From positions 1-16,107 of the forward strand of contig CAVUXE010000001.1 in NCBI GenBank assembly GCA_963745235.1: a stretch of DNA of 16,107 nucleotides, written 5' to 3'. A program made the translations under genes and the position numbers. Shown piece by piece: positions 223 to 14,903 of the stretch (positions are counted from its first letter, which is position 1; the number at the start of each line of letters is the position of its first letter). Below the pieces are notes generated by a model, which was not told where the DNA came from, did not search any database, and worked only from the letters and a program-made list of their open reading frames with translations. The stretch comes from an uncultured Spirochaetota bacterium (GTDB taxonomy: Bacteria; Spirochaetota; Spirochaetia; SZUA-6; Fen-1364).

Positions 223-1500
223 TTGCGCTGGATCTTTCATGGCTCACCGCCCACGAGCAAGCCTCAATGTCCCATCTCAGAACCGGATTCGATTTTCGCC
301 AAAATGGATTCGAATGGACTTGTCGTCGCATATCACCCAGACTCAAGTGAACGGATCGGAAAGCCAGCCCCATGGAAGTTCGTTGAAGCTATGAAGAGCA
401 CGGGGCGTGGGATGGCTGAGGAATCTTCCCCGGATGGAATTCCGCGAATATTCGCGTATGACGCTGTGACGGGGAGCAAGCTTTTTGGCGGGGATCTTTA
501 CGTAGCGATTGGGCTGCCGAAAGACTCCTTGCTTGCAGTGTTCAATCGCTTCATGGTCCAGAACACATCCGCCATGGGGATAGTTGCGCTCTTGGTTTTC
601 GTATTCGCATGGATAAGCAGCGAGCTTCTTGTTGTCCGTCCGGCTCGTGCCATTTTAACTACCACAGAGGAGCTGCGCCGCGGGAACTTGAGGGCTCGAA
701 CTGGGCTTCTCCATAGAGAAGGCGATATTGGACGATTGGCTTTTTCTGTCGACCAAATGGCGGAAACGCTGCAGAATCAGGACCACGAACACGAACGCAT
801 GATAGCCATACTGACTCAAAGTGAAGAGAAGTATCGCAGCCTTGTAGAAACATCACCCGATGCCATAGCGCTGTTGGATGAAAATTTCAAAATCATAATG
901 ATGAGCCCGGCAGGCTTGCGACTTACTGGATACGAAAGGCCGGACCAACTAATCGGAAAAAGCTTCTTCGATTTCTTTATTCCGGAAGATAAGTCTCGCC
1001 TGATTGAAGAAATCACTCGAACCCTTCAAGTCAAGGAAGTTCAGAATCTCGAGCACATCATAATCAGAGAGAATGGCACTTCAGTCCCCGTTGAGATCAG
1101 GGCTTCAGCGCTTGGTGATAAAAACACAACTTTCCGAAGCATTATCACCCTCCTCAGGGACATAAGCAGCCGCAAAGAGGCAGAGGAGGAAAGGAAGAAA
1201 ACGCAATCCCAACTCTTCCAGGCCCAAAAGATGGATTCTATCGGAACCCTCGCAGGAGGGGTTGCCCATGATTTCAACAACCTTCTCACGGTGATTATCG
1301 GTCACTCCGATTACTTGATGTCAGTTGTCGACAAAGATCAACAAATGTATACGAGCCTGAAGGAGATCCACCGCGCATCAATGCGGGCGGCGGATCTGAC
1401 CCACCAGTTGCTTCTTTTTAGTCGCCGACAACCAATGGAGCTCTTGCCCTTGATATCAGTAGGACGGTCGAAGGTCTTCTCAAAATGCTCAAACGCCTGA
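223..1500 (+). CDS. Middle segment of the frameshifted hybrid kinase (Cache C-terminal half, TM, HAMP, PAS, HisKA); real coding part about 280-1449
   Basis: HAMP, PAS and H-box (AHDFNNLLTVI) motifs in the translated ORF. Both termini of this ORF are off-frame read-through. Confidence 0.6.
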   Translation: MRWIFHGSPPTSKPQCPISEPDSIFAKMDSNGLVVAYHPDSSERIGKPAPWKFVEAMKSTGRGMAEESSPDGIPRIFAYDAVTGSKLFGGDLYVAIGLPKDSLLAVFNRFMVQNTSAMGIVALLVFVFAWISSELLVVRPARAILTTTEELRRGNLRARTGLLHREGDIGRLAFSVDQMAETLQNQDHEHERMIAILTQSEEKYRSLVETSPDAIALLDENFKIIMMSPAGLRLTGYERPDQLIGKSFFDFFIPEDKSRLIEEITRTLQVKEVQNLEHIIIRENGTSVPVEIRASALGDKNTTFRSIITLLRDISSRKEAEEERKKTQSQLFQAQKMDSIGTLAGGVAHDFNNLLTVIIGHSDYLMSVVDKDQQMYTSLKEIHRASMRAADLTHQLLLFSRRQPMELLPLISVGRSKVFSKCSNA

Positions 1501-2387
1501 TTGGTGAGGATATACAAGTCGAAACTGCCTTTGTACCAGAGCTATGGTCAGTGCTCGCAGATGCCGGGAGCATGGAGCAAGTGATCATGAATATTGTCGT
1601 CAACGCAAGAGACGCAATGAAGGCAGGAGGAACCCTTAGAATTACGACCGGGAATAAGGTTATCGACGAAGGGTATTGCGCACTCTACTCATTTGCGCGC
1701 GCCGGCAAGTTCGTGTGCCTCTCAATCACGGATACCGGTGTTGGGATGACACAAGAGGTTATCTCACACATTTTCGAGCCGTTTTTTACGACGAAAGAAA
1801 TGGGAAAAGGTACCGGGCTTGGCCTTTCAGTTGTGTATGGAATCGTCAAACAACATGAGGGATGGATCACCGTCAGGAGTGAGCTTGCGAAGGGCTCAAC
1901 GTTCGATATATGTCTCCCGGCCTTCTCCGGCAGCTCGGCCGCAGCTAAAGAGGAGGACGTATCTCTCGCAAACTTGCGGGGGCGGGGAGAACGTATCCTT
2001 GTAATTGAAGACGACGAATCCATTCGGAATCTTGTACAGAGTATGCTAGTTGAGAACGGCTATCAAGTGACGGTCGCAGCAGATGCGCGGACCGCTGTAG
2101 AAGTCTTTGAAAAGGAAAAAAGAGATTTTGATCTGATCCTAAGTGATGTCATCCTCCCAGACAGGAATGGGGTCCAACTTGTCGAAGATCTATTGTCCCG
2201 TAATCCAAATCTCAAGGTTCTATTGAGCAGCGGATACACTGACGACAAATCCCAGTGGGCCGTTATACGAAAAAGGGGCTTCCGGTTCATGCAGAAGCCA
2301 TACTCCCTAGTCGGTCTCCTTCGTGCCTTGAAAGCTTGTATGGAAGGAGATCATCCGGCGCGAAGTACGGGCCGCTATCTGACTTGA
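1485..2387 (+). CDS. C-terminal segment of the hybrid kinase (HATPase_c + receiver domain)
   Basis: N, G1, F and G2 boxes plus a CheY-like receiver. The same frame upstream of the ATG reads LDISRTVEGLLKML from 1449, the normal HisKA-HATPase linker. Confidence 0.7.
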   Translation: MLKRLIGEDIQVETAFVPELWSVLADAGSMEQVIMNIVVNARDAMKAGGTLRITTGNKVIDEGYCALYSFARAGKFVCLSITDTGVGMTQEVISHIFEPFFTTKEMGKGTGLGLSVVYGIVKQHEGWITVRSELAKGSTFDICLPAFSGSSAAAKEEDVSLANLRGRGERILVIEDDESIRNLVQSMLVENGYQVTVAADARTAVEVFEKEKRDFDLILSDVILPDRNGVQLVEDLLSRNPNLKVLLSSGYTDDKSQWAVIRKRGFRFMQKPYSLVGLLRALKACMEGDHPARSTGRYLT

Positions 2388-2429
2388 AACAACAGCGTTA
2401 TCCAGACAAAGGAGACGCACCGCAGCGAA

Positions 2430-2884
2430 ATGATAAAGAAGCTCTCTATCGATCAGATCACAGAAATCTACTACATCAGGGCAGCCCTATCTTGCATCGC
2501 CGCGCGCTTTGCGGCACGGAACTTAGCCGAAGATGAAAAGAAGCAGCTTTTTATCCTCTGCGACCGGATGGATACGGAAATCGAACACGCGCAATCCAAA
2601 GCCATGCTGGAAGACAATTTGAGATTTCACGACATCATCTGCAAGGCGGCAAAGTCGCGGCGCTTTGAGGATCTGGCCTTGCAATACCATACGCAAAGCG
2701 AGCGGTATCAACCTTGGGCCTGGAACTTCCGGGGCGCTACTCCGAAATTTGCGTTGAGCACCGGACCATCGCGCAGGCACGCGCCAACGGCGACAAGGCA
2801 AACGCAGAGTTCCAAGCGCGGCAGCATCTGTCCAACACGGCCAAGAGGATCGCTGACTACTTCCACATCGACCGAGAAATCTGA
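2430..2884 (+). pseudogene. GntR-family (FCD domain) transcriptional regulator remnant: no intact HTH, frameshift at ~2710
   Basis: KLSIDQITEIYYIRAALSCIAARFAA...DNLRFHDIICKAAKSRR is an FCD signature. From 2711 the -1 frame reads TLGLELPGRYSEICVEHRTIAQARANGDKANAEFQARQHL...DREI* (conserved EH..I and H), stopping at 2882-2884, 3 bp before the convergent mglC stop. Confidence 0.8.
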
Positions 2885-2887
2885 TCT

Positions 2888-3922
2888 CTATTTCCGCTTG
2901 ATGTATTTCTGCGAGTCGATCGTTATCGCCAAGACGATGATCAATCCCTTCACGCTGTATTGGACGTAAGGATTCACTCCAATATAAACAAGGCCATAGT
3001 TAATGATCTGGAACAAGACCACGCCAGTGACAACACCCGCGACCGACCCCACGCCGCCCCTTAATGAGACCCCGCCGACCACGCAGGCCGCGATTGCATC
3101 CAGCTCGTAGCCTTCTCCCAGCAGATTGGTCGCACTGCCAGTTCGGGCGCCCTCGAGCGCTCCGCCGAAACCGTAGAGCATTCCCGCGATCGCGAAAACG
3201 ACCACGCTGTTGAGCACTATATTCACGCCCGAGACCGTCGCAGCTTCGATGTTGCCGCCTATGGCAAACATGTTCTTGCCAAGCTTTGTCTTGTTCCAGA
3301 TGAACCAGATAATCCCGACCACGATCGCGGCGTATAAGATCAGGAAGGGGATCCTGAAGTTCTGGAATTCGATCGCGCCTTGCGCGAAGTGGCTGAAGAC
3401 AGGATCAAGACCGCCTATGGGGGAGGAGTCGTTCACGCGGTCGACATAAAGAGACTCCAGCCCGTAGATGATCAGCGCGAAGCCCAGAGAGGTTATGAAG
3501 GCTTCCGTCTTTAGTTTGGTCACAATAAGGGCAATTGCAATCAAGAACAGAGAGCAGAGTACCATGACCAGCAGGATAGGCAGGACCAGGGGGAGCCTTG
3601 GCAAAGACTGATAGATGCGATGGGAGTAGTTAACCGCCTGAAGGAGCGAACAGGCAACGATCGCCGACATACCCACGTTCCTGCCCAGGGAAAGGTCGAC
3701 GCATCCCAGGACGATGATGCCGGCGACGCCGAGGGCAAGAATAATCCTTGTTGAAGCTTGTGTCATGATAAAGACGAAATTTTGCATCCTGAAGAAGCTG
3801 GGATTGATGGCGATAATGATGGCCAGCAGCGCGATCAAGAACAAGTAGAGGCCGTTTTTCAGCAGAAAAGCGGGGAGCCACTTTCGAGTCCGCATCTGTT
3901 TCGCATTCAAATCCGTCATCAT
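2888..3922 (-). CDS. mglC: Galactose/methyl-galactoside-type sugar ABC transporter permease (BPD_transp_2)
   Basis: Hydrophobic protein with 'QASTRIILALGVAGIIV..CVDLSLGR', 'TKLGKNMFAIGGNIEAATVSGVN' and 'YELDAIAACVVGGVSLRGGVG'. Lies directly downstream of mglA, with an AAGGGG RBS-like sequence upstream. Confidence 0.88.
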   Translation of the reverse strand: MMTDLNAKQMRTRKWLPAFLLKNGLYLFLIALLAIIIAINPSFFRMQNFVFIMTQASTRIILALGVAGIIVLGCVDLSLGRNVGMSAIVACSLLQAVNYSHRIYQSLPRLPLVLPILLVMVLCSLFLIAIALIVTKLKTEAFITSLGFALIIYGLESLYVDRVNDSSPIGGLDPVFSHFAQGAIEFQNFRIPFLILYAAIVVGIIWFIWNKTKLGKNMFAIGGNIEAATVSGVNIVLNSVVVFAIAGMLYGFGGALEGARTGSATNLLGEGYELDAIAACVVGGVSLRGGVGSVAGVVTGVVLFQIINYGLVYIGVNPYVQYSVKGLIIVLAITIDSQKYIKRK

Positions 3923-3940
3923 ATATGCTCACCCCTTGCC

Positions 3941-5452
3941 CTACAAATGCCTTGCTGCCAGTTCGAGAATCTCTTCCTGTTTCGTCTCCGAAGCCTTGAC
4001 GATTCCTGCGACTTTGCCGTTGCTCATAACCAGTATCCGGTCTGCCACGCTGATCAGCTCAGGCATTTCGGAGGAAACGAAAACAATGCTGTTTCCCATC
4101 TTCGCGAGGTCTATCATGAGTTGGTAGATTTCGTATTTCGCACCGACGTCAATGCCACGTGTAGGCTCGTCCATGAGGAAAATTTGCGGCTTGGTGAGGA
4201 GCCACCTGCCGAGAATGACTTTCTGCTGGTTGCCTCCTGAGAGGTTGCCAATCTGCACCTTCTGAGAAGGAGTCTTCACCGAAAGCCGTTGGATCACCCA
4301 CTGTGTGTCTCGCGTGGCGAGCTTGTACCGCAGAATCCCGAGTCGATCGCAGTATGCGCTAATGTTGGCGATAATTGCGTTGAACTGGACGTTGAGTAGG
4401 GCGAAGATACCGGTCGCCCGCCGTTCCTCCGTGAGGAGGCCGAGACCTTTGGCGATCGACAACTTCGGGTTGGACGTGCGTGCCGATTTCCCGCGAACGA
4501 TTATTTCGCCGCTTTTCATTTTCCTGATACCGAATATTGTCTCGACGAGCTCGGTCCTCCTCGACCCTATGAGCCCCCCGATCCCGAGTATCTCGCCGCG
4601 ATACAGGTCGAAGGAGACGTCGACGATCGATGGCTGGTAGGTGGCTGTGAGGTTGCGTATGCTCATGACGACGTCATCCGAAGGCACATTTACCTTGGGC
4701 GGGAAGAGGTGGGTCAGGTCGCGGCCCACCATCAGGGAAATGATCGAGTCCTTGGTGAGGTCCGCGGCGCGCTCCGAGGCGATCCATTTGCCGTCGCGCA
4801 TTACCGTCACCTCATCGGAAATCAGCAGGATCTCTTCCATCTTATGAGATATGTAGACAACGGCAACGCCGTCATCTTTCAGTTTCCGGATGATGCGGAA
4901 GAGGTGCTGGACTTCGGTCTCGGTGAGCGAGGACGAAGGCTCGTCGAGGACGATGATCTTGGCGTCGCAGGAAACCGCCCTGGCGATCTCCACCATCTGC
5001 CGCTGCGCCACAGAGAGGGTTCCTATCTTCTTCTTCGGATTCAGCTCGATACTCAGGTCGCGGAGAATGCGTTGCGTGTCCTCTAGCATCTTCCGCTCGT
5101 CCACCATCAAGCCCTTCGTTGGGAAACGGCCTATCCAGATATTATCGGTGACGCTCCGCTCCAGCACTTGGTTCAGTTCCTGGTGCACCATCGACACGCC
5201 CGAGTCCAGCGCTTGGCGCGGGTTTTCGAATGACACCGGCTTGCCGTCCAGAAGGATCTCACCCGAATCCGCGCGATAGATACCGAACAAGCATTTCATC
5301 AGGGTCGACTTCCCTGCGCCGTTTTCCCCAACTAGCGCATGCACTGTGCCCGGCCGGATCCGGAGTCGCGCCTCGTCGAGCGCCTTCACCCCGGGAAACT
5401 CCTTGCACATGCCGCGCATCTCAAGGATGTACGTGCCGCTGTCCTGCTTCAT
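3941..5452 (-). CDS. mglA: Sugar ABC transporter ATP-binding protein, two NBDs (MglA/RbsA type), 503 aa
   Basis: Walker A GENGAGKST, Q-loop MVHQELN, Walker B IVLDEP, H-loop YISHKMEE, second domain LSGGNQQKV and LMDEPTRGIDVGAKYEIY. Start moved to ATG 5452 (MKQDSGTYILEM) with AAGG upstream. Confidence 0.9.
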   Translation of the reverse strand: MKQDSGTYILEMRGMCKEFPGVKALDEARLRIRPGTVHALVGENGAGKSTLMKCLFGIYRADSGEILLDGKPVSFENPRQALDSGVSMVHQELNQVLERSVTDNIWIGRFPTKGLMVDERKMLEDTQRILRDLSIELNPKKKIGTLSVAQRQMVEIARAVSCDAKIIVLDEPSSSLTETEVQHLFRIIRKLKDDGVAVVYISHKMEEILLISDEVTVMRDGKWIASERAADLTKDSIISLMVGRDLTHLFPPKVNVPSDDVVMSIRNLTATYQPSIVDVSFDLYRGEILGIGGLIGSRRTELVETIFGIRKMKSGEIIVRGKSARTSNPKLSIAKGLGLLTEERRATGIFALLNVQFNAIIANISAYCDRLGILRYKLATRDTQWVIQRLSVKTPSQKVQIGNLSGGNQQKVILGRWLLTKPQIFLMDEPTRGIDVGAKYEIYQLMIDLAKMGNSIVFVSSEMPELISVADRILVMSNGKVAGIVKASETKQEEILELAARHL

Positions 5453-5529
5453 TGCCTTGGCCGTCAGAGACGGAAACCGCGCTCGCGACACGCACAAAAC
5501 GCTGCCTGCCGTGCGCGCGGAATCGATAA
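5453..5529 (-). other. Structured mglB-mglA intergenic region (stem-loops, probable mRNA-stabilising or processing element)
   Basis: Minus-strand GCGCGCACGG...TTGTGCGTGT can pair, using G-U pairs. There is also a perfect small hairpin CCGTC-AGA-GACGG at 5461-5473. Such structures are common after binding-protein genes. Confidence 0.45.
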
Positions 5530-6573
5530 CTACTTTACTTCTGTCTTCGCGTAGGCGTCTTCTGCCAGCTTGACGTTGGCCTTGGTGATTTCGTAATAGG
5601 GCATACGTACGTCCCGGAAGGTCCCGACCTTGCCTTTCTTGACGCCCGCCAGGGGATTGGTGCCGCGCACGAGATTCACCGCGATGGTCAGGATGGCCTG
5701 GCCTTCGTTGTTAGGGTCGGAAAGGACGGAGCCGAGCATGATGTTGTCCTTGATGAGAGGCACGACGGTGGAGAGGGCGTTGATGCCTACGACGCCCATG
5801 TACTTCTTCCCGGTGAAATATCCGTTCTCCTTGAGAGCCTCAACCGCGCCGAGTGCCATGGCGTCATTGTTGCAGATAACCATATCGATCGTGTCGCCGT
5901 ATTTTCCGATCCAGGTCTCCATGACGTTCTTGGCATCGGCAGTGTTAAAGTTCGCAGGCTGGATTGCAAGCAACTCGGTTGCAAAGCCTGCGTTCTTCAT
6001 CGTTTCTATGACCGTCTTGGTACGGGCCTCAGCGTCGGGATGACCGGGGGTTCCCTTCAGGATCACATAATGCATCTTCCCGTCCTTGTTCCTGTCGAGG
6101 GAAGGCATGTCTTTCCAGGCTTTCATCACCAGTTGAGCCTGGATGACTCCAGATTCCTCGGGGGTCGTCCCCACGTACCAGCACTTGTCGTAGCTGAGAA
6201 TGTCTTCCTTGGCCGGGCAGCGGTTGAAGAATACGATGGGGATATTACTCGCCTTTGCTTTCGCAATCAAAGTAACTGCGGCTGCCGGGTCCACTGGATT
6301 GATCGCCAGAACGTCGACCCCTTTTGCGATCAGGGTATCTATCTGATCGTTCTGTGTCACCTGGCTGTTCTTCGCATCCACGTATTCGACGCTTACCGCG
6401 GGTCCCAAGCTGCTCTCGAAAGCCTTCATCCCTCCGCGCATGTACGACAGGTAGGTGTTGGAAAAGTCAAAGAAGTCCACTCCAATTTTCACCGTCTTTG
6501 TCGATTGCGCCCAGACTGCGGAGGCGCCCAGCAGCATTGCAACTACCAACAGGAGCAACAGAGCTTTTTTCAT
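5530..6573 (-). CDS. mglB: Periplasmic sugar-binding protein of the glucose/galactose-binding protein (MglB/GGBP) family, with a divergent pocket
   Basis: Sec/SPI signal peptide MKKALLLLLVVAMLLGASAVWA-Q. Motifs 'QNDQIDTLIAKGVDVLAINPVDP', Ca-loop 'DRNKDGKMHY', 'GHPDAEART' and 'CNNDAMALGAVEAL'. AGGAGG RBS at 6581-6586. The start could be any of three tandem ATGs (6573/6576/6579). Confidence 0.82.
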   Translation of the reverse strand: MKKALLLLLVVAMLLGASAVWAQSTKTVKIGVDFFDFSNTYLSYMRGGMKAFESSLGPAVSVEYVDAKNSQVTQNDQIDTLIAKGVDVLAINPVDPAAAVTLIAKAKASNIPIVFFNRCPAKEDILSYDKCWYVGTTPEESGVIQAQLVMKAWKDMPSLDRNKDGKMHYVILKGTPGHPDAEARTKTVIETMKNAGFATELLAIQPANFNTADAKNVMETWIGKYGDTIDMVICNNDAMALGAVEALKENGYFTGKKYMGVVGINALSTVVPLIKDNIMLGSVLSDPNNEGQAILTIAVNLVRGTNPLAGVKKGKVGTFRDVRMPYYEITKANVKLAEDAYAKTEVK

Positions 6574-6601
6574 CATCATACCTCCTGAAGCAAGTGTTAC
6601 T

Positions 6602-6647
6602 CGACCGCACACAGCGGCCGTCTACCCCCTGTCAACCCGGGGGGCAA
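6602..6647 (-). other. Tandem intergenic hairpins upstream of mglB
   Basis: Minus strand reads TTGCCCCCCG-GGTTGA-CAGGGGGTAG followed by CGGCCGC-TGTGT-GCGGTCG. No U-tract follows. Confidence 0.45.
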
Positions 6648-6657
6648 TCCGAATACT

Positions 6658-7620
6658 TTACGCGTTGTCCTCTGCGGCGATGTTCGCGGCGACGAAGGCC
6701 GCCACTTCGGTCTCGTTGCGCCAGTCCAGTGGCGCCTGCGCAGGGAAGATCTCCCAGTGTTCGACGTGCTCCACTGCGGCGCCCGGCGCGACGAGAGCCA
6801 GAGGCGAGAGGCTCTCCATCTCGAGCATGCGGTCATGGGTGTAGGTCTCGAACGACACGCCGAAATCGGGGTATTCCGCGCCCTCGACATGAGGATGCCG
6901 GCAAAGGAAGCAGCTGCCCTTGTTGATATAGCACGCCCAGCCTTCGACGTTGTTGATGCCAAGTTTCATGGGCTTTTCGTTGTTCGGATCCTGTTTGACG
7001 GCGACGTATCGGTTGCCCCAGTAGATCCGTTCGTCTCGCATCGCCGTGTAGTCCCAAAGCGCTATGCGACGGTTGGGCAAAACCCCCGCAAGCAAAGTTG
7101 GCTGCGGAATTATTTCCAGGCCGCCGGGGGCCATCGCGGTCACAGACCAAGCACCCATCCGCTTCGGCGACTTCCCGACGTTCGTCACACGAAAGCGAAG
7201 CGAAACCCTTCCTTTGCCCTTATCCATGCGAATCTCCACCTCGTTGCGAACCTCGTTCACTTTCTGCGGCGGAGAGCGGAATATCGCCCCGTCGGGGAGG
7301 AGTTCGGATTCGACCGGTTCATTGTCTGGATAGAATGCATGAGGAAAGGAGTGCGGCGAGACCCAGAGTCTGTTGCCGCCGTAAATGTTCCAGTACGCGC
7401 CCGGATAGAAAACCTCGTCGAAGGCCGGGCCTTTCTTCACGTTGTTAGGGTCGAGGTTGTTGAATAAGATATTATGTCCGCCGTCGAGGGAATAAGACAT
7501 GACACGAGGCCCGTAGTCGATGGCGACGGTGAGCCCGGCAGTGCCGTCGCTGACGCGCACGCAATTGCCATACTCAGAGCAGTGTATCAGCTCCGAACAG
7601 ACGCCGAGCGTGCCTTTCAT
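6658..7620 (-). CDS. DUF4380-like protein (probable galactose-mutarotase/aldose-epimerase-like beta-sandwich), function unknown
   Basis: Motifs 'DYGPRVMSY', 'WNIYGGNRLWVSP', 'FYPDNEPV', 'YPDFGVSFETYT' and 'LEMESLSP' are recalled as typical of this family. ATGA overlap with the upstream dehydrogenase. Confidence 0.7.
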   Translation of the reverse strand: MKGTLGVCSELIHCSEYGNCVRVSDGTAGLTVAIDYGPRVMSYSLDGGHNILFNNLDPNNVKKGPAFDEVFYPGAYWNIYGGNRLWVSPHSFPHAFYPDNEPVESELLPDGAIFRSPPQKVNEVRNEVEIRMDKGKGRVSLRFRVTNVGKSPKRMGAWSVTAMAPGGLEIIPQPTLLAGVLPNRRIALWDYTAMRDERIYWGNRYVAVKQDPNNEKPMKLGINNVEGWACYINKGSCFLCRHPHVEGAEYPDFGVSFETYTHDRMLEMESLSPLALVAPGAAVEHVEHWEIFPAQAPLDWRNETEVAAFVAANIAAEDNA

Positions 7621-8717
7621 CTGGCCGTTCCATCCTCAGGCCCATTGGGTTCGATAACGACTTTGATGGCCCCTTCCTTGCGGCCCACGAAAGTATCGAG
7701 CGCGACAGCGAACTCGTCCAAGGCGAAGACATGTGTTATGAGATCCTTGACGACAAGAGAACCGGAAGCTATTGATTCCACTATCTTCCATGAGACGTTG
7801 GGATTCGCCCTCGACCCGAAAATGGCGAGCTCATTGTGGACGATGTACTTGTAAGGAAGCTTTTCGAGGACCTTGTCGTTTGGCACGCCAAGAAGTGCCA
7901 CGCTTCCGCCCTTTCGTAGCATGCGTATCGCCTGAGCAAAGGTTCCCTCGGATCCCGAGCACTCGAATGCCTGATCGACGCCCTCGCCCTCAGTGGCCTT
8001 CCTGACGGCCTCAACAGGATCTTCCTTTTCAAAATTCACTACTACGTCGGCCCCCATCTTCCTTGCCGACTCGAGTCTCGATCCGCGCCCCACCATGATG
8101 ACCTTCGCAGCTCCCAGGACCTTGGCGAAGCGCATGGCGATGAGGCCTATGGGGCCAGGACCTATGACGGCCACTGTACCCCCGGCCGTGATTCCTGTCT
8201 GTTCCATGCCATGCAGTGTTACCCCCGCCGTATCCACCAGGGCGCCTTCTCTGAACGAAACGCTACCGGGCATCCTATTGATACTCTTTACCGAGTACAG
8301 GTTATATTGTGCATAGGCGCCTGGAGAGATGAAGCCGTAATGCCTATGCCCTGTTTCGGGCCTGCCGTAGTTAAGGCAAATTGTGTAGCGGCCGTTGAGG
8401 CAGTTCCTGCATATACCGCAACCCTTATGGGCCTGTCCCGCCACCCTGTCACCCACCGCAAAGCCGACTGCGTCCTGGCCCAAAGCGGCAACCTCGCCTG
8501 ACCATTCGTGACCCGGCGTGAAGGGGTAGGAAGGCGGCCACGTGCCCGCCAGATCGCCGCGGATGATTTCCGGATCGCTTCCGCATATCGCCACCGCGCG
8601 AATCCGGCACAGTACCTCACCAGGACCGGGCACCGGTACAGGTACTTGTCGGATTTCGAACTTCCCTGGAGAGGTCAATACCAATGCCTTCATCGTCGCG
8701 GCAATGGGAGAAACCAT
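7617..8717 (-). CDS. Zinc-dependent medium-chain (sorbitol/threonine-dehydrogenase-like) sugar or polyol dehydrogenase
   Basis: Catalytic 'ICGSD' and 'GHEWSGEV', structural Zn 'CGICRNCLNGRYTIC', Rossmann 'VIGPGPIG'. Start at ATG 8717 with GGAGG at 8724-8728. Confidence 0.9.
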   Translation of the reverse strand: MVSPIAATMKALVLTSPGKFEIRQVPVPVPGPGEVLCRIRAVAICGSDPEIIRGDLAGTWPPSYPFTPGHEWSGEVAALGQDAVGFAVGDRVAGQAHKGCGICRNCLNGRYTICLNYGRPETGHRHYGFISPGAYAQYNLYSVKSINRMPGSVSFREGALVDTAGVTLHGMEQTGITAGGTVAVIGPGPIGLIAMRFAKVLGAAKVIMVGRGSRLESARKMGADVVVNFEKEDPVEAVRKATEGEGVDQAFECSGSEGTFAQAIRMLRKGGSVALLGVPNDKVLEKLPYKYIVHNELAIFGSRANPNVSWKIVESIASGSLVVKDLITHVFALDEFAVALDTFVGRKEGAIKVVIEPNGPEDGTAR

Positions 8718-8782
8718 AATAAGCCTCCACATGGATGGGGATCAGGTACTATAAAAATTAGACGGTGGCGGATCTTCGATAC

Positions 8783-8811
8783 AGAATGCAACACAAAGAC
8801 GTGGATGTCAA
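8783..8811 (-). promoter_or_regulatory. Putative sigma70 promoter of the sugar operon
   Basis: Perfect -35 TTGACA (8811-8806), 17-nt spacer, weak -10 CATTCT (8788-8783), about 65 nt upstream of the start codon. Confidence 0.5.
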
Positions 8812-8872
8812 GGAAGAATTTTGCATCACTGGGTCTGGGCTTTCTTGGAAAGATCCTGTGATTCGCCGATAC

Positions 8873-8900
8873 TGGACATTATCCTATTTCGTGATATCTT
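8873..8900 (+). promoter_or_regulatory. Putative sigma70 promoter (extended -10) of the O-methyltransferase gene
   Basis: TGGACA (8873-8878), 16-nt spacer, TGa-TATCTT (8892-8900), followed by RBS GAAGGA and ATG 8926. Confidence 0.45.
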
Positions 8901-8925
8901 CCTGCCACTAGAAGGATTGAACATC

Positions 8926-9600
8926 ATGATCGACGACAAATGGATTGCAGTTGACGACTATTTCGAGGCACTTTTCACACAGAAAGACAAAGACCTGGAG
9001 ACCGCTCTCAATACCTGCACCGCGGCCGGGATGCTCGCGCAGCAGGTTACGGCGAGCCAGGGCAAGTTTCTGGCGATTCTTGCTCAGTCTGTCTGTGCAA
9101 AGTCCATTCTCGAGATAGGAACCTTGTATGGTTACAGCACGATTTGGCTCGGCCGAACGCTCCCGCAAGATGGCAGGTTATTCTCGTTGGAGATTGACGA
9201 TCAACGAGCCAAGCTTGCTCGCCTGAATATCGAAAGGGCGGGATTGGAGAAAGTAGTTGAAATCCGCACAGGCGCCGCGCTTGAAACACTTTCACATCTG
9301 GCGACGGAAAGGCAGGCGCCCTTTGACTTCGTCTTCGTGGATGCGGATAAGCCCAACTATCGCGCGTACCTTGACTGGGTCATGAGGCTGACAAGACGCG
9401 GCAGCCTGATTGTCGCTGACAATATTGTACGCGACGGAGCAGTCACCTACGCAGATAGCAGTGATGAGCGGATCCGGGGTGTTCGGGAGTTCAACTCTGC
9501 CGTCGCGGAAGATCGTCGGCTGAGCGCTGTTGGAATCCAGACTGTTGGAACGAAGGGCTATGACGGGTTTCTTGTTGCGCTGGTAACCGGAGACCCGTAA
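8926..9600 (+). CDS. SAM-dependent O-methyltransferase (Methyltransf_3; caffeoyl-CoA/catechol OMT-like), 224 aa
   Basis: 'QGKFLAIL', motif I 'ILEIGTLYGYSTIW', 'FDFVFVDADKPNY' and 'LIVADNIVRDG' (metal-binding D/DN). Start corrected to ATG 8926. Confidence 0.9.
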   Translation: MIDDKWIAVDDYFEALFTQKDKDLETALNTCTAAGMLAQQVTASQGKFLAILAQSVCAKSILEIGTLYGYSTIWLGRTLPQDGRLFSLEIDDQRAKLARLNIERAGLEKVVEIRTGAALETLSHLATERQAPFDFVFVDADKPNYRAYLDWVMRLTRRGSLIVADNIVRDGAVTYADSSDERIRGVREFNSAVAEDRRLSAVGIQTVGTKGYDGFLVALVTGDP

Positions 9601-9767
9601 GGCTCGCCAGACTTCCCCTGGACAGCCCGGCAGCACTGGAGTATCGTATGAGACCATCTTTTTCATGCATTTCCCTTCTCCAATCGAGAAATATCCCAGG
9701 CCGAAAGAGTAGTCTTAGAGCCGAACGGTATTGAAAACGCGGCCTAATTGGAACAAGGAGCGACGTA

Positions 9768-10883
9768 GTGCGCAAAACCGTGGTCTATGTGGGTACGTAC
9801 ACCGAACCAATTCTTTTCGGGTCGGGGGAAGTCTTTCAAGGAAAAGGCGAAGGCATTTACACCTTCGAGCTGGATGAGGCGACAGGAGCCCTGAATCTGC
9901 GCCACACGACAAAAGGCGTCACAAATCCGTCCTATCTGGCCATCGATTCTCGGCATAGGTTCCTGTATGCGGTCAATGAGCTGAAGACATTCGAAGGGAA
10001 AAAAAGCGGAACGATCAGCGCCTTTGCCGTGGACCCGCGTTCGGACTCACTTCAGTTCTTGAATAAGAAGCTCACACACGGAACCGATCCGTGCCACGTC
10101 GCAATCGACAGAAGCGGCAAAGCGGTTTTTGTCGCCAATTTCATGAGCGGGAGTGTGTGCGCCTTGCCAATCCGTGCGGATGGGAGCCTCCAGGAGGCGT
10201 CCACCATCATTCAGCATGAAGGATCAAGTGTAGATGCGAAGCGACAAAGCGGTCCGCACGCGCACTCGACGGTGCTCGATCCTGCAAACCGGTTCGCGTT
10301 CGTGCCCGATCTCGGGCTGGACCGCGTGATGTCCTACCGTCTCGACCTGGAGCAAGCCACGATGACGCCGAACGAGATACCTTGGCTCGAGGCAAAACCT
10401 GGTGCCGGTCCACGGCATCTCACCTTCACCCCGGATGGCCGATACGCATATATCATCAACGAGCTGGATTCTACAATGATAGCTGCTGCCTATCAGGCGG
10501 AGCGAGGTAGTTTTCAGGTGATACAGACTCTCTCCACCCTTCCCGAAGGTTTTGCGGGGACCAGCACCTGCTCGGACATCCAGGTTTCCCCTTCAGGAGA
10601 TCTCGTATTCGGCTCGAACCGAGGACATGACAGTATTGCCATCTTCGGGATCAACCGGGATACCGGCAGGCTGACGGCCCAGGGACATCAAGCGACCGGA
10701 GGAAGAATCCCACGGAGTTTCGGGATCGACCCCACGGGAACCTTTCTTCTCGTGGCCAATCAATCCAGCGATTCGATAGTGACATTCAGGATTGACCGAC
10801 TTCACGGCTCGCTCGTGCCCACTGGCCTGGTCGCGAATGTGCCGACCCCCACGTGCCTGACGTTTGCGTCCGAGGGACAATAG
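9768..10883 (+). CDS. Lactonase family 7-bladed beta-propeller (6-phosphogluconolactonase / 3-carboxymuconate cyclase-like), cytoplasmic
   Basis: 'VYVGTYT', 'NPSYLA', 'YAVNE', 'RQSGPHAH', 'VPDLGLD', 'GAGPRHL', 'SNRGHDSI' and 'VANQSSD'. GTG start with AAGGAG RBS. No signal peptide. Confidence 0.9.
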   Translation: MRKTVVYVGTYTEPILFGSGEVFQGKGEGIYTFELDEATGALNLRHTTKGVTNPSYLAIDSRHRFLYAVNELKTFEGKKSGTISAFAVDPRSDSLQFLNKKLTHGTDPCHVAIDRSGKAVFVANFMSGSVCALPIRADGSLQEASTIIQHEGSSVDAKRQSGPHAHSTVLDPANRFAFVPDLGLDRVMSYRLDLEQATMTPNEIPWLEAKPGAGPRHLTFTPDGRYAYIINELDSTMIAAAYQAERGSFQVIQTLSTLPEGFAGTSTCSDIQVSPSGDLVFGSNRGHDSIAIFGINRDTGRLTAQGHQATGGRIPRSFGIDPTGTFLLVANQSSDSIVTFRIDRLHGSLVPTGLVANVPTPTCLTFASEGQ

Positions 10884-10884
10884 A

Positions 10885-11823
10885 ATGTCAACGAGGGACA
10901 CAATTGCCGTAATCGGCACTGGGATGATGGGCCCCGGCATAAGCGCGCGCAGTGCGCTGGCAGGGAACAAGACGAAGCTGTTCAGCCGGTCGCCTGAGAG
11001 GGCGGCTGCTGGTCTGGACAAGGCAAGATATTGCATCCAGCAGTTGCTTGACAACGAAATAGTGAGCAAGAGCCAGGCCCAAAATGCAAATGAGTTGCTG
11101 GAGTCATCCACCGATTTTGAACGGGAGTTGGGGGATGTCTTCTGGGTCATAGAAGCAATCACGGAAAATCTTTCAAAGAAACAGGAATTGTTTACGCTGA
11201 TTGACACCATCGCGCCGCCGGAGGTGATTATTACAAGCAACACCTCTGGCTTGAGAATCACTGAGATTGCACAATTTACAAATCATCCCGAAAGGACGGC
11301 AACAACACACTTCTGGTTTCCTGCCCATCTGATTCCCCTTGTAGAAGTGGTTATGGGTGACAAGACCGATGAACGAATCGCCTTACATGTGAAGGAGCTT
11401 CTTCTGAAGTGGAACAAGGCTCCCGTCGTCGTCAAGAAGGATCTACCAGGGCAACTGGCCAATCGCATTCTGCAAGCCGTGATTCGCGAAGCGATCCACA
11501 TCGTTCAAATAGGATTGGCTACCCCTGAAGATGTCGATACAGCCGTGAAGATGGGGATGGGAATTCGTATGCCGGTTTGGGGACCACTGGAGCACATCGA
11601 AGCCGTGGGGCTCGACCTGGCACTCTCCGTGCAACAAAGCGTGCTCCCGGGAATAAGCAACGACGCTGAGCCTTCGATGTATCTGAAGGAGCTGGTCAAA
11701 CTGGGCAAGCTCGGTTACAAGACCGGTGCAGGTTTCTACGACTGGAGTGCGAAAGACATGGAGGCATTAACAGAGAAAAGGGATATCTTCATCATGAATG
11801 CTCTCAGATCCATCAGGCCTTGA
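10885..11823 (+). CDS. 3-hydroxyacyl-CoA dehydrogenase family protein (possibly L-gulonate 3-dehydrogenase/lambda-crystallin-like), 312 aa
   Basis: GTGMMG Rossmann motif, 'VIEAITENL', 'SNTSGL', catalytic His/Glu 'HFWFPAHLIPLVEVV', 'PGQLANRI', 'GPLE' and 'GKLGYKTGAGFYDW'. ATG lies 1 nt after the lactonase stop. Confidence 0.88.
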   Translation: MSTRDTIAVIGTGMMGPGISARSALAGNKTKLFSRSPERAAAGLDKARYCIQQLLDNEIVSKSQAQNANELLESSTDFERELGDVFWVIEAITENLSKKQELFTLIDTIAPPEVIITSNTSGLRITEIAQFTNHPERTATTHFWFPAHLIPLVEVVMGDKTDERIALHVKELLLKWNKAPVVVKKDLPGQLANRILQAVIREAIHIVQIGLATPEDVDTAVKMGMGIRMPVWGPLEHIEAVGLDLALSVQQSVLPGISNDAEPSMYLKELVKLGKLGYKTGAGFYDWSAKDMEALTEKRDIFIMNALRSIRP

Positions 11824-12320: not shown

Positions 12321-12377
12321 CGATCTGTATTTCGTCAAGCAAAATCCCCGGAAAGATCGTGCAGTTTTTCCCCATTA

Positions 12378-12740
12378 GAGCCTATCCGAAAACCCCTTAG
12401 CGTTGTGAAATGCGGCCGGATTTGATTCTCTGGGAGGGGAAGATGGTCGACCAAGCGATGGGGATCGAAAAGAAATACTGCCTGTCGGATGTGGTGTGGA
12501 CACGAGTCATGCCGCTGCTGCCCGCGCACAGAAAGAGGCGCAAGGGCGGACGTCCACCGATGGACGACCAGAAAGGCGATGACTGCCATCTTGTACGTGC
12601 TGCTCACCGGTACCAGTGGAGAGCGCTTCCGCGAAGCTTGGGAGGGGACGACGTCATGATCGATTCGGCAATGGGTTAAGGCGGGTTGTTCAAAAAGATG
12701 TGGAAGGCCGGGCTGCTGGATTTGGGGGAAAAAAAGGAAG
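12378..12740 (+). mobile_element. Degenerate IS5-family (IS427-like, DUF4096 N-terminus) element remnant
   Basis: Left end TA|GAGCCTATCCGAAAACCCC. Fragments across several frames: YCLSDVVWTRVMPLLP...KGGRPPMDD, KAMTAILYVLLTG, QWRALPRSLG, HDRF, QWVKAG, LFKKMWKAGLL. No DDE domain or right IR seen. Confidence 0.8.
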
Positions 12741-12910
12741 CTCGGCTCGAGGACCGAAGATTCGCCGCCGCACAAGCGCGGAAGGAAGCCTCTGCCACCC
12801 GAGATCCCTGACGCTGCAATCCCTGGTGAACCTCTTGCGAGCGGAATTATCCTTTGCAGATCAGGCAATAGCATTGCTGTACGACCGTTCTTGCGGCAGA
12901 TGGTTGCTGA

Positions 12911-13822
12911 TTAATTCTCTTTCCTATACGGGATGCCGAGCTTGCCGGGAACGTTGAAGGAACGCCGCAGGATCGTCAGCGCGATGGTAAGGATGTAGGG
13001 AAGCGCGATAAAGAGCTCGTTCGGGAGCAGCAGTGAACCAGAGGACTGCATGCTAATGGCCACCGCTTCTGCCACTCCGAAGATCAGCGTCCCGGCCAGC
13101 GCTCCCAACGGGTTCCAATTCCCCAAGAAGCAGATTGCGAACGCGATCCAACCGCGGCCGCCGATGATGTTCGTGGTGAACATTCCCAGGTAGCCGATCG
13201 AATAGAAAGCCCCCGCGATCCCGCCCATGGCGCCCGCCAGAAGCACCATCGAAAACCTGATCCGTTCGACCCGGATCCCGGCCACGTCCGCGGCTTCGGG
13301 GTTCTCACCCGTGGACCGGATGGTAAGCCCGATCGAGGTCCGATACAAAACAAACCAAGCTGCGGGCACGATGAAATACATGCTGTACGTGAAGATATTC
13401 TGGTCGAACAATATAGCACCAATAACGGGAGTCCGCGACAGGATGGGCACCGCCAGCGTCCTGAGTGGTTCCACGGTCAGAGGCACGACGGGAACGCCGA
13501 AGACGGCCCGCATGAAGAAGGCGCTCAGCCCGGTGGCGAGGAGGTTGAAGGCAGTTCCCGTGACGATCTGATGCTGCTTGAGGTACACGGTGATCCAGCC
13601 GTAGAAAGCGGCGTAGACAGCGCCCACCAGCACGGCGAGAGCTATACCCACCGCGAGGCTGTGGCTCTCGTAGTCGCCAACGAAGCCCCCCAACGCGCCG
13701 AGAAGGAAGATGCCTTCGACGGCGCACACCATGACGCCGGCCCGCTCGGCAAAGACTTCGGCGATGGATCCGAACAGGAGAGGGGTGCTCATCATCAGGG
13801 CACGGGCAAGAAGGTCCGTCAT
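12911..13822 (-). CDS. Nucleoside/purine-type ABC transporter permease (NupC/YufQ-like)
   Basis: 'STPLLFGSIAEVFAERAGV', 'GLTIRSTGENPEAADVAGI', 'GRGWIAFAICFLGNWNP' and 'LPYILTI'. ATGA overlap with the upstream permease. Confidence 0.88.
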   Translation of the reverse strand: MTDLLARALMMSTPLLFGSIAEVFAERAGVMVCAVEGIFLLGALGGFVGDYESHSLAVGIALAVLVGAVYAAFYGWITVYLKQHQIVTGTAFNLLATGLSAFFMRAVFGVPVVPLTVEPLRTLAVPILSRTPVIGAILFDQNIFTYSMYFIVPAAWFVLYRTSIGLTIRSTGENPEAADVAGIRVERIRFSMVLLAGAMGGIAGAFYSIGYLGMFTTNIIGGRGWIAFAICFLGNWNPLGALAGTLIFGVAEAVAISMQSSGSLLLPNELFIALPYILTIALTILRRSFNVPGKLGIPYRKEN

Positions 13823-14883: not shown

Positions 14884-14903
14884 GTCATCTCCCCGATGTC
14901 GAA

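Follow-up and report, generated by a model that had tools for sequence, protein, structure and literature searches.

The region between 2.4 and 11.8 kb of the window (the whole 16,107-nucleotide stretch of DNA analysed here) is probably a single accessory module for the oxidation of a sugar or sugar acid, and it very probably imports a sugar, proposed to be of hexose type, and oxidises it via a lactone to a sugar acid. It forms part of an acquired gene island of atypical composition in a peat or soil spirochaete, and none of the enzyme subfamilies that the module uses has been characterised by anyone so far. Pfam and NCBIfam scans of the window found all of the island genes as described in the original prediction, arranged in two divergent clusters (Table 1). 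The minus strand carries an mglBAC-like importer, a DUF4380/TTE1925-like protein and a Zn-dehydrogenase (ZnDH), and the plus strand an O-methyltransferase (OMT), a beta-propeller lactonase and a HAD-family dehydrogenase. The promoter region that they share, earlier put at about 200 bp, measures 208 bp after refinement of the starts, since ZnDH begins at 8717, downstream of a GGAGG site and in line with the starts in the related loci L001 and L002, and the OMT at 8926. The scans also bear out that Leloir genes, beta-oxidation partners and zwf/gnd are absent from the window. Moreover, the lactonase, the HAD-family dehydrogenase and ZnDH fall below every NCBIfam equivalog cut-off, including those of Pgl, Hbd/PaaH and Tdh, so that the default labels fail, as had been argued. 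The grouping of the genes is more than chance, because it recurs in other genomes. A Bmp-type ABC operon lies outside the proposed pathway.

Table 1. Features of the island, with positions in the window and the domain or profile evidence for each.
Feature	Position	Strand	Evidence
GntR/FCD regulator remnant	2418-2969	+	FCD domain only (Pfam); HTH domain missing
mglC, ABC permease of MglC type	2888-3922	-	NF007014 430.5 bits, above the cut-off of 386
mglA, MglA-like ABC ATPase	3941-5497	-	NF008215 783.7 bits, below the cut-off of 828
MglB-like periplasmic binding protein, altered ligand pocket	5530-6612	-	NF011924 311.5 bits, below 420
DUF4380/TTE1925-like protein, predicted galactose-mutarotase fold	6658-7620	-	NF052227 284.8 bits, below 550
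ZnDH, Zn-dependent medium-chain dehydrogenase, NADP-type signature	7617-8717	-	ADH_N, ADH_zinc_N and Glu_dehyd_C domains
Divergent spacer	8718-8925		208 bp; alignment of ZnDH promoter with L001 and L002
OMT, cation-dependent, catechol-type	8926-9600	+	Methyltransf_3 144 bits
Lactonase, cytoplasmic, 7-bladed beta-propeller	9768-10883	+	PF10282 386 bits
HAD-family dehydrogenase, CoA-independent type	10885-11823	+	3HCDH_N and 3HCDH domains

The importer resembles the MglBAC system of E. coli in its architecture, in an MglC that passes the equivalog cut-off (and shares 80-85% identity with its counterparts in L001 and L002) and in being paired with a mutarotase-fold protein, the counterpart of GalM. 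Unlike the E. coli system, it has MglB and MglA scores under the respective cut-offs and is not accompanied by Leloir genes. The binding protein shares 43% identity with E. coli MglB and retains N91, H152, D154, R158 and N211 of that pyranose-binding protein, but its pocket carries the changes D14N, M182N, D236N and N256S, which are found in four of the four aligned clade members. With its pocket altered in this way, the importer would take up a sugar other than D-galactose or D-glucose.

The anomers of the sugar would then be interconverted by the DUF4380 protein, an activity suggested by the name of its NCBIfam family. The DUF4380 label stands by family relationship and fold but not by the Pfam threshold, the window protein reaching only 14.2 bits (E 0.021); PF14315 is present in most of its homologues at 36-57% identity. 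A galactose-mutarotase fold is predicted by its AlphaFold model (pLDDT 93.4), which matches GalM and aldose 1-epimerases best among PDB structures (E 9e-11, TM 0.57), in agreement with the anomer interconversion earlier proposed for it. There is no profile-level homology to PF01263, and none detectable in sequence to GalM (hhalign probability 0.7%).

Gene order elsewhere supports the reading as one sugar or sugar-acid module. The neighbourhood analysis found the ZnDH-DUF4380-mglB core in four other independent loci (L001/G401, L002/G402, L028 and L029), the count being 5 of 82 DUF4380-centred loci with L027 a duplicate of L001, and the five are exactly those in which DUF4380 is at least 47% identical to that of the window. 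No DUF4380 match at E <= 1e-10 was found in four of five ZnDH-bearing genomes of the same order. A single strand of L028 reads GntR-mglBAC-ZnDH-HAD(61%)-DUF4380-UxuA, the last a mannonate dehydratase (TIGR00695 408.9 bits, above the cut-off of 199.6), and in G470 ZnDH (66%) adjoins HAD (61%), with a GntR gene and a lactonase (58%) nearby. The module also has a lactonase orthologue (55-58%) as a neighbour in G401, in G470 and probably in G402. The lactonase is paired with HAD in the window and in G426, of the same genus (87% and 89% identity), and with an SDR in G401, G402 and G404; HAD is absent from G401 and G402. The functional link earlier claimed between the two clusters is thus favoured for the lactonase and HAD, by synteny in L028, G470 and G401, but not for the OMT, which was not found beside the module in L028, G402 or G470 and is represented at its position in G401 by a methyltransferase merely 30% identical. 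As it is not conserved beside the module elsewhere, the OMT is probably not a member of the pathway.

Because pairs of dehydrogenase and lactonase genes recur, we infer that the HAD-family dehydrogenase, or an SDR in its place in close kin, would oxidise a lactol to the aldonolactone, which the beta-propeller lactonase would open. The latter scores 178.8 bits with the Pgl equivalog (below 370), and its N-terminus, inspected by eye, is not signal-peptide-like. The NADP-type ZnDH would then convert the aldonate to a keto-aldonate, probably at the penultimate carbon, since UxuA, a fructuronate-reductase-like gene and GntR/FCD regulators adjoin ZnDH orthologues, and these neighbours point to entry of the keto-aldonate into the hexuronate route (fructuronate/mannonate to KDG). 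GntR/FCD regulators occur at 8 of 12 ZnDH loci. The fructuronate-reductase-like gene (361 bits) lies near the ZnDH orthologue of G454, together with a UlaG-like lactonase and a TIM-barrel protein, and UxuA is found beside the module in L028 only, with none above the cut-off in G000, a genome only 85.7% complete. In G458 a DHDPS-family gene, and in G462 a LarA-like one, also neighbours the ZnDH orthologue. We prefer this order of steps, namely import, anomer interconversion, HAD with the lactonase and finally ZnDH, tentatively, at somewhat less than even confidence.

The HAD-family protein has the same two-domain fold as FHMPC dehydrogenase (4om8) and L-gulonate 3-dehydrogenase (3ado), and it has in common with 4om8 the motifs H-(L/I)-IP-x-(V/I)-EV and VVVKKD-x-PG, which PaaH lacks. 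An HF-x-x-P ... VEV motif, which we take to be the site of the catalytic His-Glu dyad, is present in 120 of 120 homologues of the subfamily. The FHMPC-dehydrogenase equivalog scores only 204.8 bits (below the cut-off of 500), and that enzyme belongs to vitamin B6 degradation whereas HAD stands among sugar genes. We know of no aldose or lactol dehydrogenase in the HAD family, and literature searches found none, which counts against the preferred order. Of 120 ZnDH homologues, all 120 carry the GHE and CxxCxxCx7C motifs, and beta-2 ends in VGRGxR, an NADP-type signature. This too counts against the preferred order, as known aldonate 5-dehydrogenases, among them LguD, described below, use NAD+.

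The preferred scheme has parallels in the L-galactose/L-glucose and L-gulonate pathways. In the accessible part of the account of the lgu cluster of Luteolibacter LG18, which cites Bvu0219-0222 of Bacteroides vulgatus, an aldose is converted to an aldonate, then by the aldonate 5-dehydrogenase LguD to a 5-keto-aldonate, which passes through hexuronate catabolism to KDG (PMC12632266); the N-terminus of LguD (MKTLVL...) resembles that of the Zn-dehydrogenases. As far as that part of the account goes, the partner dehydrogenase is of the LguA family whereas the window has a HAD-family enzyme, and its kin an SDR; LguD uses NAD+ in contrast to the NADP-type signature of ZnDH; the dehydratase is for altronate, that of L028 for mannonate; and the beta-propeller lactonase, the mutarotase-fold protein and the MglB-like ABC importer are found in the window only (PMC12632266).

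The order originally predicted, which we regard as doubtful, makes ZnDH an NADP+ aldose 1-dehydrogenase that follows the mutarotase, after which the lactonase acts and HAD oxidises the aldonate at C3, in the manner of L-gulonate 3-dehydrogenase, or at another carbon. Throughout the clade ZnDH lies next to DUF4380, the signature is NADP-type, and the Glu_dehyd_C score (the C-terminal domain of archaeal glucose dehydrogenase; 50.1 bits against a Pfam cut-off of 34.9) fits this order, but the 60 best PDB matches of ZnDH include no glucose dehydrogenase and are headed by polyol dehydrogenases and Tdh. Lactonases of two folds accompany ZnDH, PF10282 and, in G454, UlaG-like, and its alternative partners (HAD, a Gno/KduD-like SDR and the mannitol-dehydrogenase family) come from families containing aldonate dehydrogenases. 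However, the Lact-HAD pair of G426 and the SDR-Lact pair of G404 occur without ZnDH. The proposed C3 oxidation sits poorly with HAD itself, which matches PaaH and FHMPC dehydrogenase at 164 bits each and lambda-crystallin/L-gulonate 3-dehydrogenase at only 94.5. Such chemistry is known in bacteria from the L-threonate 3-dehydrogenase route for C4-C6 sugar acids, but the enzyme there, according to the accessible part of the source, is an SDR working with a kinase and a decarboxylase (PMC12994016). No kinase or decarboxylase for a 3-keto-aldonate was seen in the window or in any related locus examined, and the ZnDH neighbours point instead to the hexuronate/KDG route, which disfavours the 3-keto-aldonate as product. 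As a whole, the original interpretation is partly supported.

It is unlikely that the pathway dispenses with an aldose step altogether, such that an L-aldonate or its lactone would be imported, the lactonase would open the lactone, ZnDH would oxidise C5 and HAD would reduce the keto-acid to a D-aldonate. An example would be the passage of L-gulonate through fructuronate and D-mannonate to KDG via UxuA, with an SDR or UxuB-like protein replacing HAD elsewhere. The run of ZnDH-HAD-...-UxuA on one strand in L028 and the accompanying GntR/FCD regulators are consistent with this, as are the alternation of HAD, the Gno/KduD-like SDR and the fructuronate-reductase-like gene as ZnDH partners and the neutralisation of two acidic pocket residues by D14N and D236N. 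IdnD/IdnO provide a further parallel. Such a route would, however, leave the mutarotase-fold protein without a role, it does not fit the NADP-type signature or the retained pyranose-binding residues and, to our knowledge, aldonate-binding CUT2 proteins are unusual. In H. influenzae, L-gulonate is said to pass via fructuronate and D-mannonate to UxuA, with UxuB as the reductase; HI0053 is reportedly a Zn-type enzyme, and the locus is said to hold an acid-sensing regulator. The accessible part of the published account, in which mannonate is prominent, parallels the aldose-free route in giving HI0053 as a putative L-gulonate dehydrogenase, but it describes a TRAP transporter and, within that part, no lactonase, mutarotase-like gene or HAD-family enzyme (PMC5788505).

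Still a little less likely is a mosaic of two unrelated units, ZnDH-DUF4380-mglBAC serving a sugar and OMT-lactonase-HAD serving something else, for example a lactone, whether aromatic or not. In favour of this are the atypical composition of the window as an island, the catechol-type OMT (231 bits with PDB 8c9s), the adjacency in G428 of distant homologues of the OMT and lactonase, and the occurrence of the module without HAD in G401 and G402. No ZnDH orthologue was found in G426, where the Lact-HAD pair is present, and therefore the two units can work apart; that pair, however, adjoins a CUT1 ABC transporter and a GH31 glycosidase. Also against a mosaic, two independent loci, L028 and G470, have a HAD orthologue (58-61% identity) immediately next to ZnDH and on its strand, the lactonase neighbours the module in G470 as well as in G401, and both G401 operons have an operator motif in common. 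An oxidoreductive polyol route, in which ZnDH would use NADPH to reduce an aldose or ketose to an alditol and a second dehydrogenase would yield a ketose, is very improbable, for although ZnDH is NADP-type and resembles sorbitol dehydrogenase and ketose reductase, and its G454 neighbour from the mannitol-dehydrogenase family reaches nearly the same score with D-arabinitol 4-dehydrogenase (326.9 bits) as with fructuronate reductase, the lactonases, UxuA and GntR/FCD regulators would be unexplained and the module has no sugar kinase.

The regulator remnant is frameshifted near 2714-2735, for two segments of the full-length regulator of G401, residues 69-174 and 168-223, match it in two different frames, and residues 1-68 find no match in it. 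By these alignments it is the decayed GntR/FCD regulator of the module and, the repressor gene having decayed here, expression of the module may be constitutive in this genome. The ZnDH promoter shares homology with its counterparts in L001 and L002, with TTGACA conserved, but the spacer operator is degenerate in that alignment, and a search of the window for the full operator motif, allowing up to three mismatches, found no match. Because the operator is degenerate and the regulator decayed, the window gives no signal of co-regulation. Near-identical contigs from two peat RNA libraries map to mglB (at 6009-6167), ZnDH, the lactonase and HAD, which is weak evidence of expression since DNA can occur in such libraries. 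In G401, the ZnDH and SDR-lactonase operons are each preceded by the same operator-like motif, with 3 matches observed against 0.27 expected.

The divergent gene cluster lies on a contig (C1) that the window covers from end to end (16,107 bp) and that belongs to a spirochaete metagenome-assembled genome of 5.85 Mb. Genes were defined by listing open reading frames (ORFs) and scanning with Pfam and NCBIfam, which recovered all the genes and the divergent layout of the original prediction and, again in line with it, found no Leloir, β-oxidation or pentose-phosphate genes in the window. On one strand a zinc-dependent medium-chain dehydrogenase (ZnDH), with a GGAGG site before its start, is followed by a DUF4380 protein and an mglBAC-type importer; across a spacer of 208 bp the other strand carries an O-methyltransferase (OMT), a lactonase and a member of the 3-hydroxyacyl-CoA dehydrogenase family (HAD), whose start was placed two bases past the lactonase stop because its best homologue has 312 residues. 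An Rfam scan of the window gave no match and a terminator scan only background level. Contigs of two public DNA runs, X1 and X2, have an additional G after position 8736, shortly before ZnDH begins; either strains differ here or the assembly is wrong, and the base is non-coding if the gene starts as tabulated.

Features of the window, with the basis on which each was assigned
Feature	Position	Strand	Basis or remark
Hybrid histidine kinase (HAMP-PAS-HisKA / HATPase-REC)	223-2387		two overlapping ORFs
GntR/FCD remnant	2418-2969		no HTH domain
mglC	2888-3922	minus	MglC equivalog passed, 430.5 bits vs 386
mglA-like	3941-5497	minus	NCBIfam/Pfam scans
MglB-like binding protein	5530-6612	minus	NF011924 match below cut-off
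DUF4380/TTE1925-like	6658-7620	minus	sub-threshold NCBIfam/Pfam matches
ZnDH, Zn-dependent medium-chain dehydrogenase	start 8717	minus	start from alignment with related loci
Methyltransf_3 OMT	start 8926	plus	Pfam
PF10282 beta-propeller lactonase	9768-10883	plus	Pfam
Two-domain HAD-family dehydrogenase	start 10885	plus	length of best homologue
orf179	12335-12874		no family match
Bmp-type ABC operon	12915-16107		two permeases and an ATPase

Neighbourhood searches were centred on the DUF4380 gene, the rarest of the set, and returned 82 loci, two genomic and 80 metagenomic. A ZnDH orthologue (69-92% identity) adjoins DUF4380 in five of these (L001 and its duplicate L027, L002, L028 and L029); these five, and no others, have a DUF4380 protein with 47% or more identity to that of the window, and in all of them an MglB-like gene follows or precedes. 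The other 77 (at most 44% identity, many on short contigs) held no ZnDH, HAD or lactonase homologue, and their contexts were mixed, including GalE with GalT, AraA with ROK, FGGY kinases and housekeeping genes. The nearest kin of the ZnDH-DUF4380-mglBAC run are found in genomes G401 (L001) and G402 (L002), at 80-92% identity to the window (82-92% in L001), where a convergent GntR/FCD gene of full length comes after the operon, and beyond it a pair made up of a short-chain dehydrogenase (SDR) and a lactonase 55% identical to that of the window; in G402 this pair is located at the end of a separate contig. In G401 a palindrome-like motif of 15 bases is found some 30 bp upstream of ZnDH, and a copy with two mismatches precedes the SDR-lactonase pair by about 22 bp. 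This operator-like motif (TGGATACTGGATCCA), at positions 8860-8874 and 15359-15373 of L001, stands before both operons and has three matches in G401 against 0.27 expected; the motif upstream of ZnDH in L002 is identical. In L028 a single strand carries GntR/FCD, mglB, mglA, mglC, ZnDH (69%), HAD (61%), DUF4380 (49%) and UxuA, the last of which passes the mannonate-dehydratase equivalog (408.9 bits against 199.6).

A ZnDH orthologue (E ≤ 1e-100, 57-67% identity) is present in six of 92 genomes of the same order, that of the window (G000) counted, and at the same threshold in none of 24 other genomes of the family. One strand of G470 carries a cupin, a CUT1 ABC importer, a second medium-chain dehydrogenase (MDR), ZnDH and HAD (61%), from which a GntR/FCD gene and a PF10282 lactonase (58%) diverge, and G465 has GntR, then cupin, MDR and ZnDH, plus a 5′-truncated HAD. 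MDR, GntR, ZnDH and a CUT2 ABC importer are found in G458, with a DHDPS-family gene nearby, and ZnDH, a LarA-like gene and an FAD oxidase in G462. A mannitol-dehydrogenase-family gene (best match fructuronate reductase, 361 bits, below cut-off) adjoins ZnDH in G454, which at a second site has a UlaG-like lactonase, ZnDH, a TIM-barrel gene, a CUT1 ABC importer, two GntR/FCD genes and ZnDH. As far as HAD and the lactonase are concerned, the two clusters, which had been proposed to belong together, are syntenic elsewhere, with a HAD orthologue adjoining ZnDH in L028 and G470 and a lactonase near the module in G401 and G470. Across twelve ZnDH loci a GntR/FCD regulator occurs in eight, DUF4380 in five, a HAD orthologue in four (one truncated) and a PF10282 lactonase on the same stretch in three, with that of G402 on a neighbouring contig end; by these counts ZnDH is the constant core, in sugar-acid contexts and paired with varied importers. 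No close DUF4380 or HAD orthologue was found in the 401 spirochaete genomes sampled, and plasmid searches returned only distant relatives (DUF4380 25-32%, HAD at most 39%, ZnDH at most 43%) in uninformative contexts.

Two smaller features of these loci may be mentioned. Where DUF4380 is absent, in L140 (G470) and L141 (G465), the small cupin before ZnDH (124-128 aa; Cupin_2 or AraC_binding) may be its functional stand-in, and the second Zn-MDR that also precedes ZnDH is 27-30% identical to it. The gap between ZnDH and HAD in L028 (8719-8960) contains, as read by eye, the 3′ part of a gene for an M24 peptidase, apparently left behind when the operon was put together by rearrangement; genes for M24 or Xaa-Pro peptidases are found as well near distant ZnDH homologues on Haloarcula and Brucella intermedia plasmids.

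The ZnDH protein contains ADH_N and ADH_zinc_N domains together with GHE and CxxCxxCx7C motifs, both found in 120 of 120 homologues, and by these features is a Zn-dependent medium-chain dehydrogenase. The end of its β-2 strand reads VGRGxR without an acidic residue, in all four clade members and in the commonest forms among the best 120 homologues. In Rossmann folds the lack of an acidic residue at this place is associated with NADP(H), and by this rule the motif suggests NADP(H) as the likely cofactor. With 50.1 bits against 34.9 the protein passes the Pfam cut-off for the C-terminal domain of glucose dehydrogenase, and it falls below the equivalogs for L-threonine 3-dehydrogenase (204.6 against 458), scyllo-inosose 3-dehydrogenase (IolM; 192.8 against 450) and L-idonate 5-dehydrogenase (99.5 against 469). 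Its nearest solved relatives, from a PDB search, are an uncharacterised S. meliloti enzyme, sorbitol dehydrogenases and threonine dehydrogenases. Homologues are numerous, the best 120 being 69-95% identical; the few with a source name come from metagenome-assembled genomes of several phyla, and the protein name, where a source gives one, is most often 'L-iditol 2-dehydrogenase'.

The binding protein shares 43% identity with E. coli MglB and scores below the MglB equivalog NF011924 (311.5 bits against 420). Among the residues that we take to be the ligand contacts of MglB (D14, F16, N91, K92, H152, D154, R158, W183, N211, D236 and N256), it retains N91, H152, D154, R158 and N211. The changes D14N, M182N, D236N and N256S are found in all four aligned clade members, F16Y, K92R and W183F in three of the four, and D14N is also present in the binding protein of L029. 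Such a pocket makes D-galactose or D-glucose an unlikely ligand. The DUF4380 protein, which is 40% identical to Thermoanaerobacter members named TTE1925 mutarotase or DUF4380, falls below both the TTE1925 family mutarotase model NF052227 (284.8 bits, E 6.7e-85, against 550) and the Pfam DUF4380 cut-off (14.2 against 29.4 bits). Its structural model (pLDDT 93.4, pTM 0.91) superposes best on GalM 4bze (E 9e-11, TM 0.57), followed by 3mwx, 3nre and YeaD 2htb, with TM values of 0.5-0.6 to aldose 1-epimerases, and the predicted fold is a galactose mutarotase-like β-sandwich. Comparison with PF01263 aldose 1-epimerase, through a profile of nine spirochaete GalM sequences, gave an hhalign probability of 0.7%, sequence and profile searches of the PDB gave no match, and an Atlas search with a stored homologue returned DUF4380 clusters only. 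A literature search on TTE1925, DUF4380 and tengcongensis mutarotase found nothing.

HAD retains the family motif HF-x-x-P ... VEV, which presumably carries the catalytic His-Glu dyad, and its motifs H-(L/I)-IP-x-(V/I)-EV and VVVKKD-x-PG are common to the CoA-independent FHMPC dehydrogenase (4om8) and not to PaaH. The clade goes, where a source name is given, under '3-hydroxybutyryl-CoA dehydrogenase', a kind of label for which the original prediction had seen no contextual support; the protein lies below the CoA-dependent equivalogs (Hbd, PaaH, FadB; 220.3 against 508, 192.3 against 408), and no β-oxidation or paa partner genes are found in the window, L028, G470 or the same-genus genome G426. 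It scores 94.5 bits to L-gulonate 3-dehydrogenase (λ-crystallin, 3ado) against 164 to PaaH and FHMPC dehydrogenase. The lactonase matches PF10282 at 386 bits and is below cut-off as a Pgl (178.8 bits against 370, NF008258); its relatives include the gluconolactonase PpgL, and its N-terminus, judged by eye, is unlike a signal peptide.

The lactonase and its dehydrogenase partner also occur apart from the module. In G426 a lactonase (87%) and HAD (89%) stand in the window's order beside a CUT1 ABC importer and a GH31 glycosidase, with no ZnDH orthologue in the genome, and another member of the genus, G404, has an SDR (65%) followed by a lactonase (58%). Since HAD is absent from both G401 and G402, these pairs make HAD and SDR look like alternative lactonase partners, and the simplest reading would be that the dehydrogenase forms a lactone which the lactonase then opens. 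The OMT, by similarity a catechol-type, cation-dependent enzyme, had been included in the pathway, to which it probably does not belong: it is absent beside the module in L028, G402 and G470, and the methyltransferase at its position in G401 is only 30% identical. It may be loosely linked to the lactonase, as distant homologues are adjacent in a further genome of the genus (G428, C12, L175, 8951-10998), where a Methyltransf_3 OMT (34%) diverges from a truncated PF10282 lactonase (41-42%) 468 bp away.

From the synteny, the shared operator of G401, the changed pocket, the fold and the motifs we infer the following catalytic assignments and order of steps. A sugar would be imported by the MglB-like ABC system, its anomers being handled by DUF4380, and would be oxidised to a lactone by HAD, or by the SDR in the kin. 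The lactonase would hydrolyse this to an aldonate, which ZnDH would oxidise to a keto-aldonate that enters the fructuronate/mannonate-to-KDG route. A pathway of the Lgu, Bvu or Gul type, from an L-hexose through an L-aldonate to a 5-keto-aldonate, would call for an aldose dehydrogenase, a Zn-type aldonate 5-dehydrogenase and hexuronate-route enzymes nearby; two dehydrogenases of putative function and a lactonase are present, with UxuA in one locus (L028) and a fructuronate-reductase-like gene in one (G454). That aldoses can be oxidised to aldonates by way of lactones, and that ketoaldonates link aldonates to KDG, is well known. The scheme would mirror the Luteolibacter L-glucose/L-galactose pathway, in which LguA acts ahead of the aldonate 5-dehydrogenase LguD, and hexuronate enzymes take over from there (PMC12632266), and likewise the L-gulonate pathway of H. 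influenzae (PMC5788505).

A serious rival is the order given in the original prediction, where ZnDH acts first on the sugar and HAD then acts on the aldonate. The NADP-type signature of ZnDH, its match to the glucose-dehydrogenase domain and its co-occurrence with lactonases of two different folds all favour this order. The C3 oxidation that the prediction assigned to HAD finds no specific support. The known bacterial aldonate 3-dehydrogenase is an SDR whose partners are a kinase and a decarboxylase (PMC12994016), neither of which is seen here. Returning to the order with HAD first, we regard as tentative, and rather improbable as it stands, the claim that HAD is a CoA-independent lactol (aldose 1-) dehydrogenase acting with the lactonase and that, together with the strongly conserved NADP-type ZnDH clade and a DUF4380 mutarotase, it constitutes a widespread soil and peat pathway from a rare, possibly L-configured hexose into hexuronate catabolism. 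If true, the 3-hydroxyacyl-CoA dehydrogenase family would gain lactol dehydrogenation as an activity new to it.

A search of the main texts of openly available journals found no characterised member of the family combination predicted here, namely an MglB-like importer with an altered pocket, a DUF4380 protein of mutarotase fold, an NADP-type Zn-MDR, a β-propeller lactonase and a CoA-independent HAD. Soil, peat and wetland metagenomes are rich in the ZnDH, HAD and ZnDH-linked DUF4380 subfamilies, none of which has a characterised member; the DUF4380 clade bears no functional name, and on the context evidence the automatic names of the ZnDH and HAD clades are probably wrong. The same evidence defines a compact set of five proteins for expression and assay. 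Identification of the substrate would correct many annotations and add an entry route of an unusual sugar into KDG metabolism, and could extend HAD-family chemistry to free sugars or sugar acids.

The copy of the module in the window has lost parts of its control. The GntR/FCD gene, intact (223 aa) at the same place in L001, is here a remnant with a frameshift near 2714-2735, and its ORF overlaps the mglC 3′ end by 82 bp. The operator is degenerate (TGTATCGAAGATCCG) within an otherwise conserved ZnDH promoter, and the full motif is absent from the window. Because of the remnant regulator and degenerate operator, co-regulation is not demonstrable in the window itself and expression of the module may be constitutive. 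Two peat RNA libraries contain contigs that match mglB, ZnDH, the lactonase and HAD at 97-100% identity, which is weak evidence of expression as such libraries can contain DNA; parts of the window without such a contig carry no weight, and the contigs of the public DNA runs are too short to bridge genes.

C1 has a GC content of 55.4% against 61.2% for the genome, and by tetranucleotide correlation it ranks among the lowest 4% of 16-kb pieces. Three genomes of the same genus (L164 in G405, L165 and L155) carry protein orthologues, at 83-86% identity, of the Bmp-type ABC operon (12.9-16.1 kb), which on this account is native to the genus. At the DNA level the resemblance to G405 breaks off at position 12915, so that everything to the left appears to be an accessory island; in the two other genomes the contig terminates at, or just beyond, the end of the perm1 match. 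Since the composition is atypical, the Bmp-type operon native to the genus and the closest relatives of the ZnDH operon those of other genomes, G401 and G402, an acquired island is a likelier account of the module than a chimeric assembly. Absences from its own genome carry little weight, and this applies to UxuA, for which G000 has no match above cut-off. A vitamin B6 unit of HAD and the 'B6 ABC'-like Bmp-type operon was dropped, as all scores were far below cut-off and the operon is convergent and, unlike the sugar genes, native to the genus.

Two further features flank the module. Contig C73 encodes a paralogue, at 52% identity, of orf179, whose reading frame is uncertain because two bases, at 12418 and at 12570, are missing from the contigs of run X2. 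The hybrid histidine kinase is broken at 1485-1500, either by a frameshift or by a sequencing error, and its stretch of C1, with a GC content of 49.7%, is the one that resembles the genome least in tetranucleotides (0.44).
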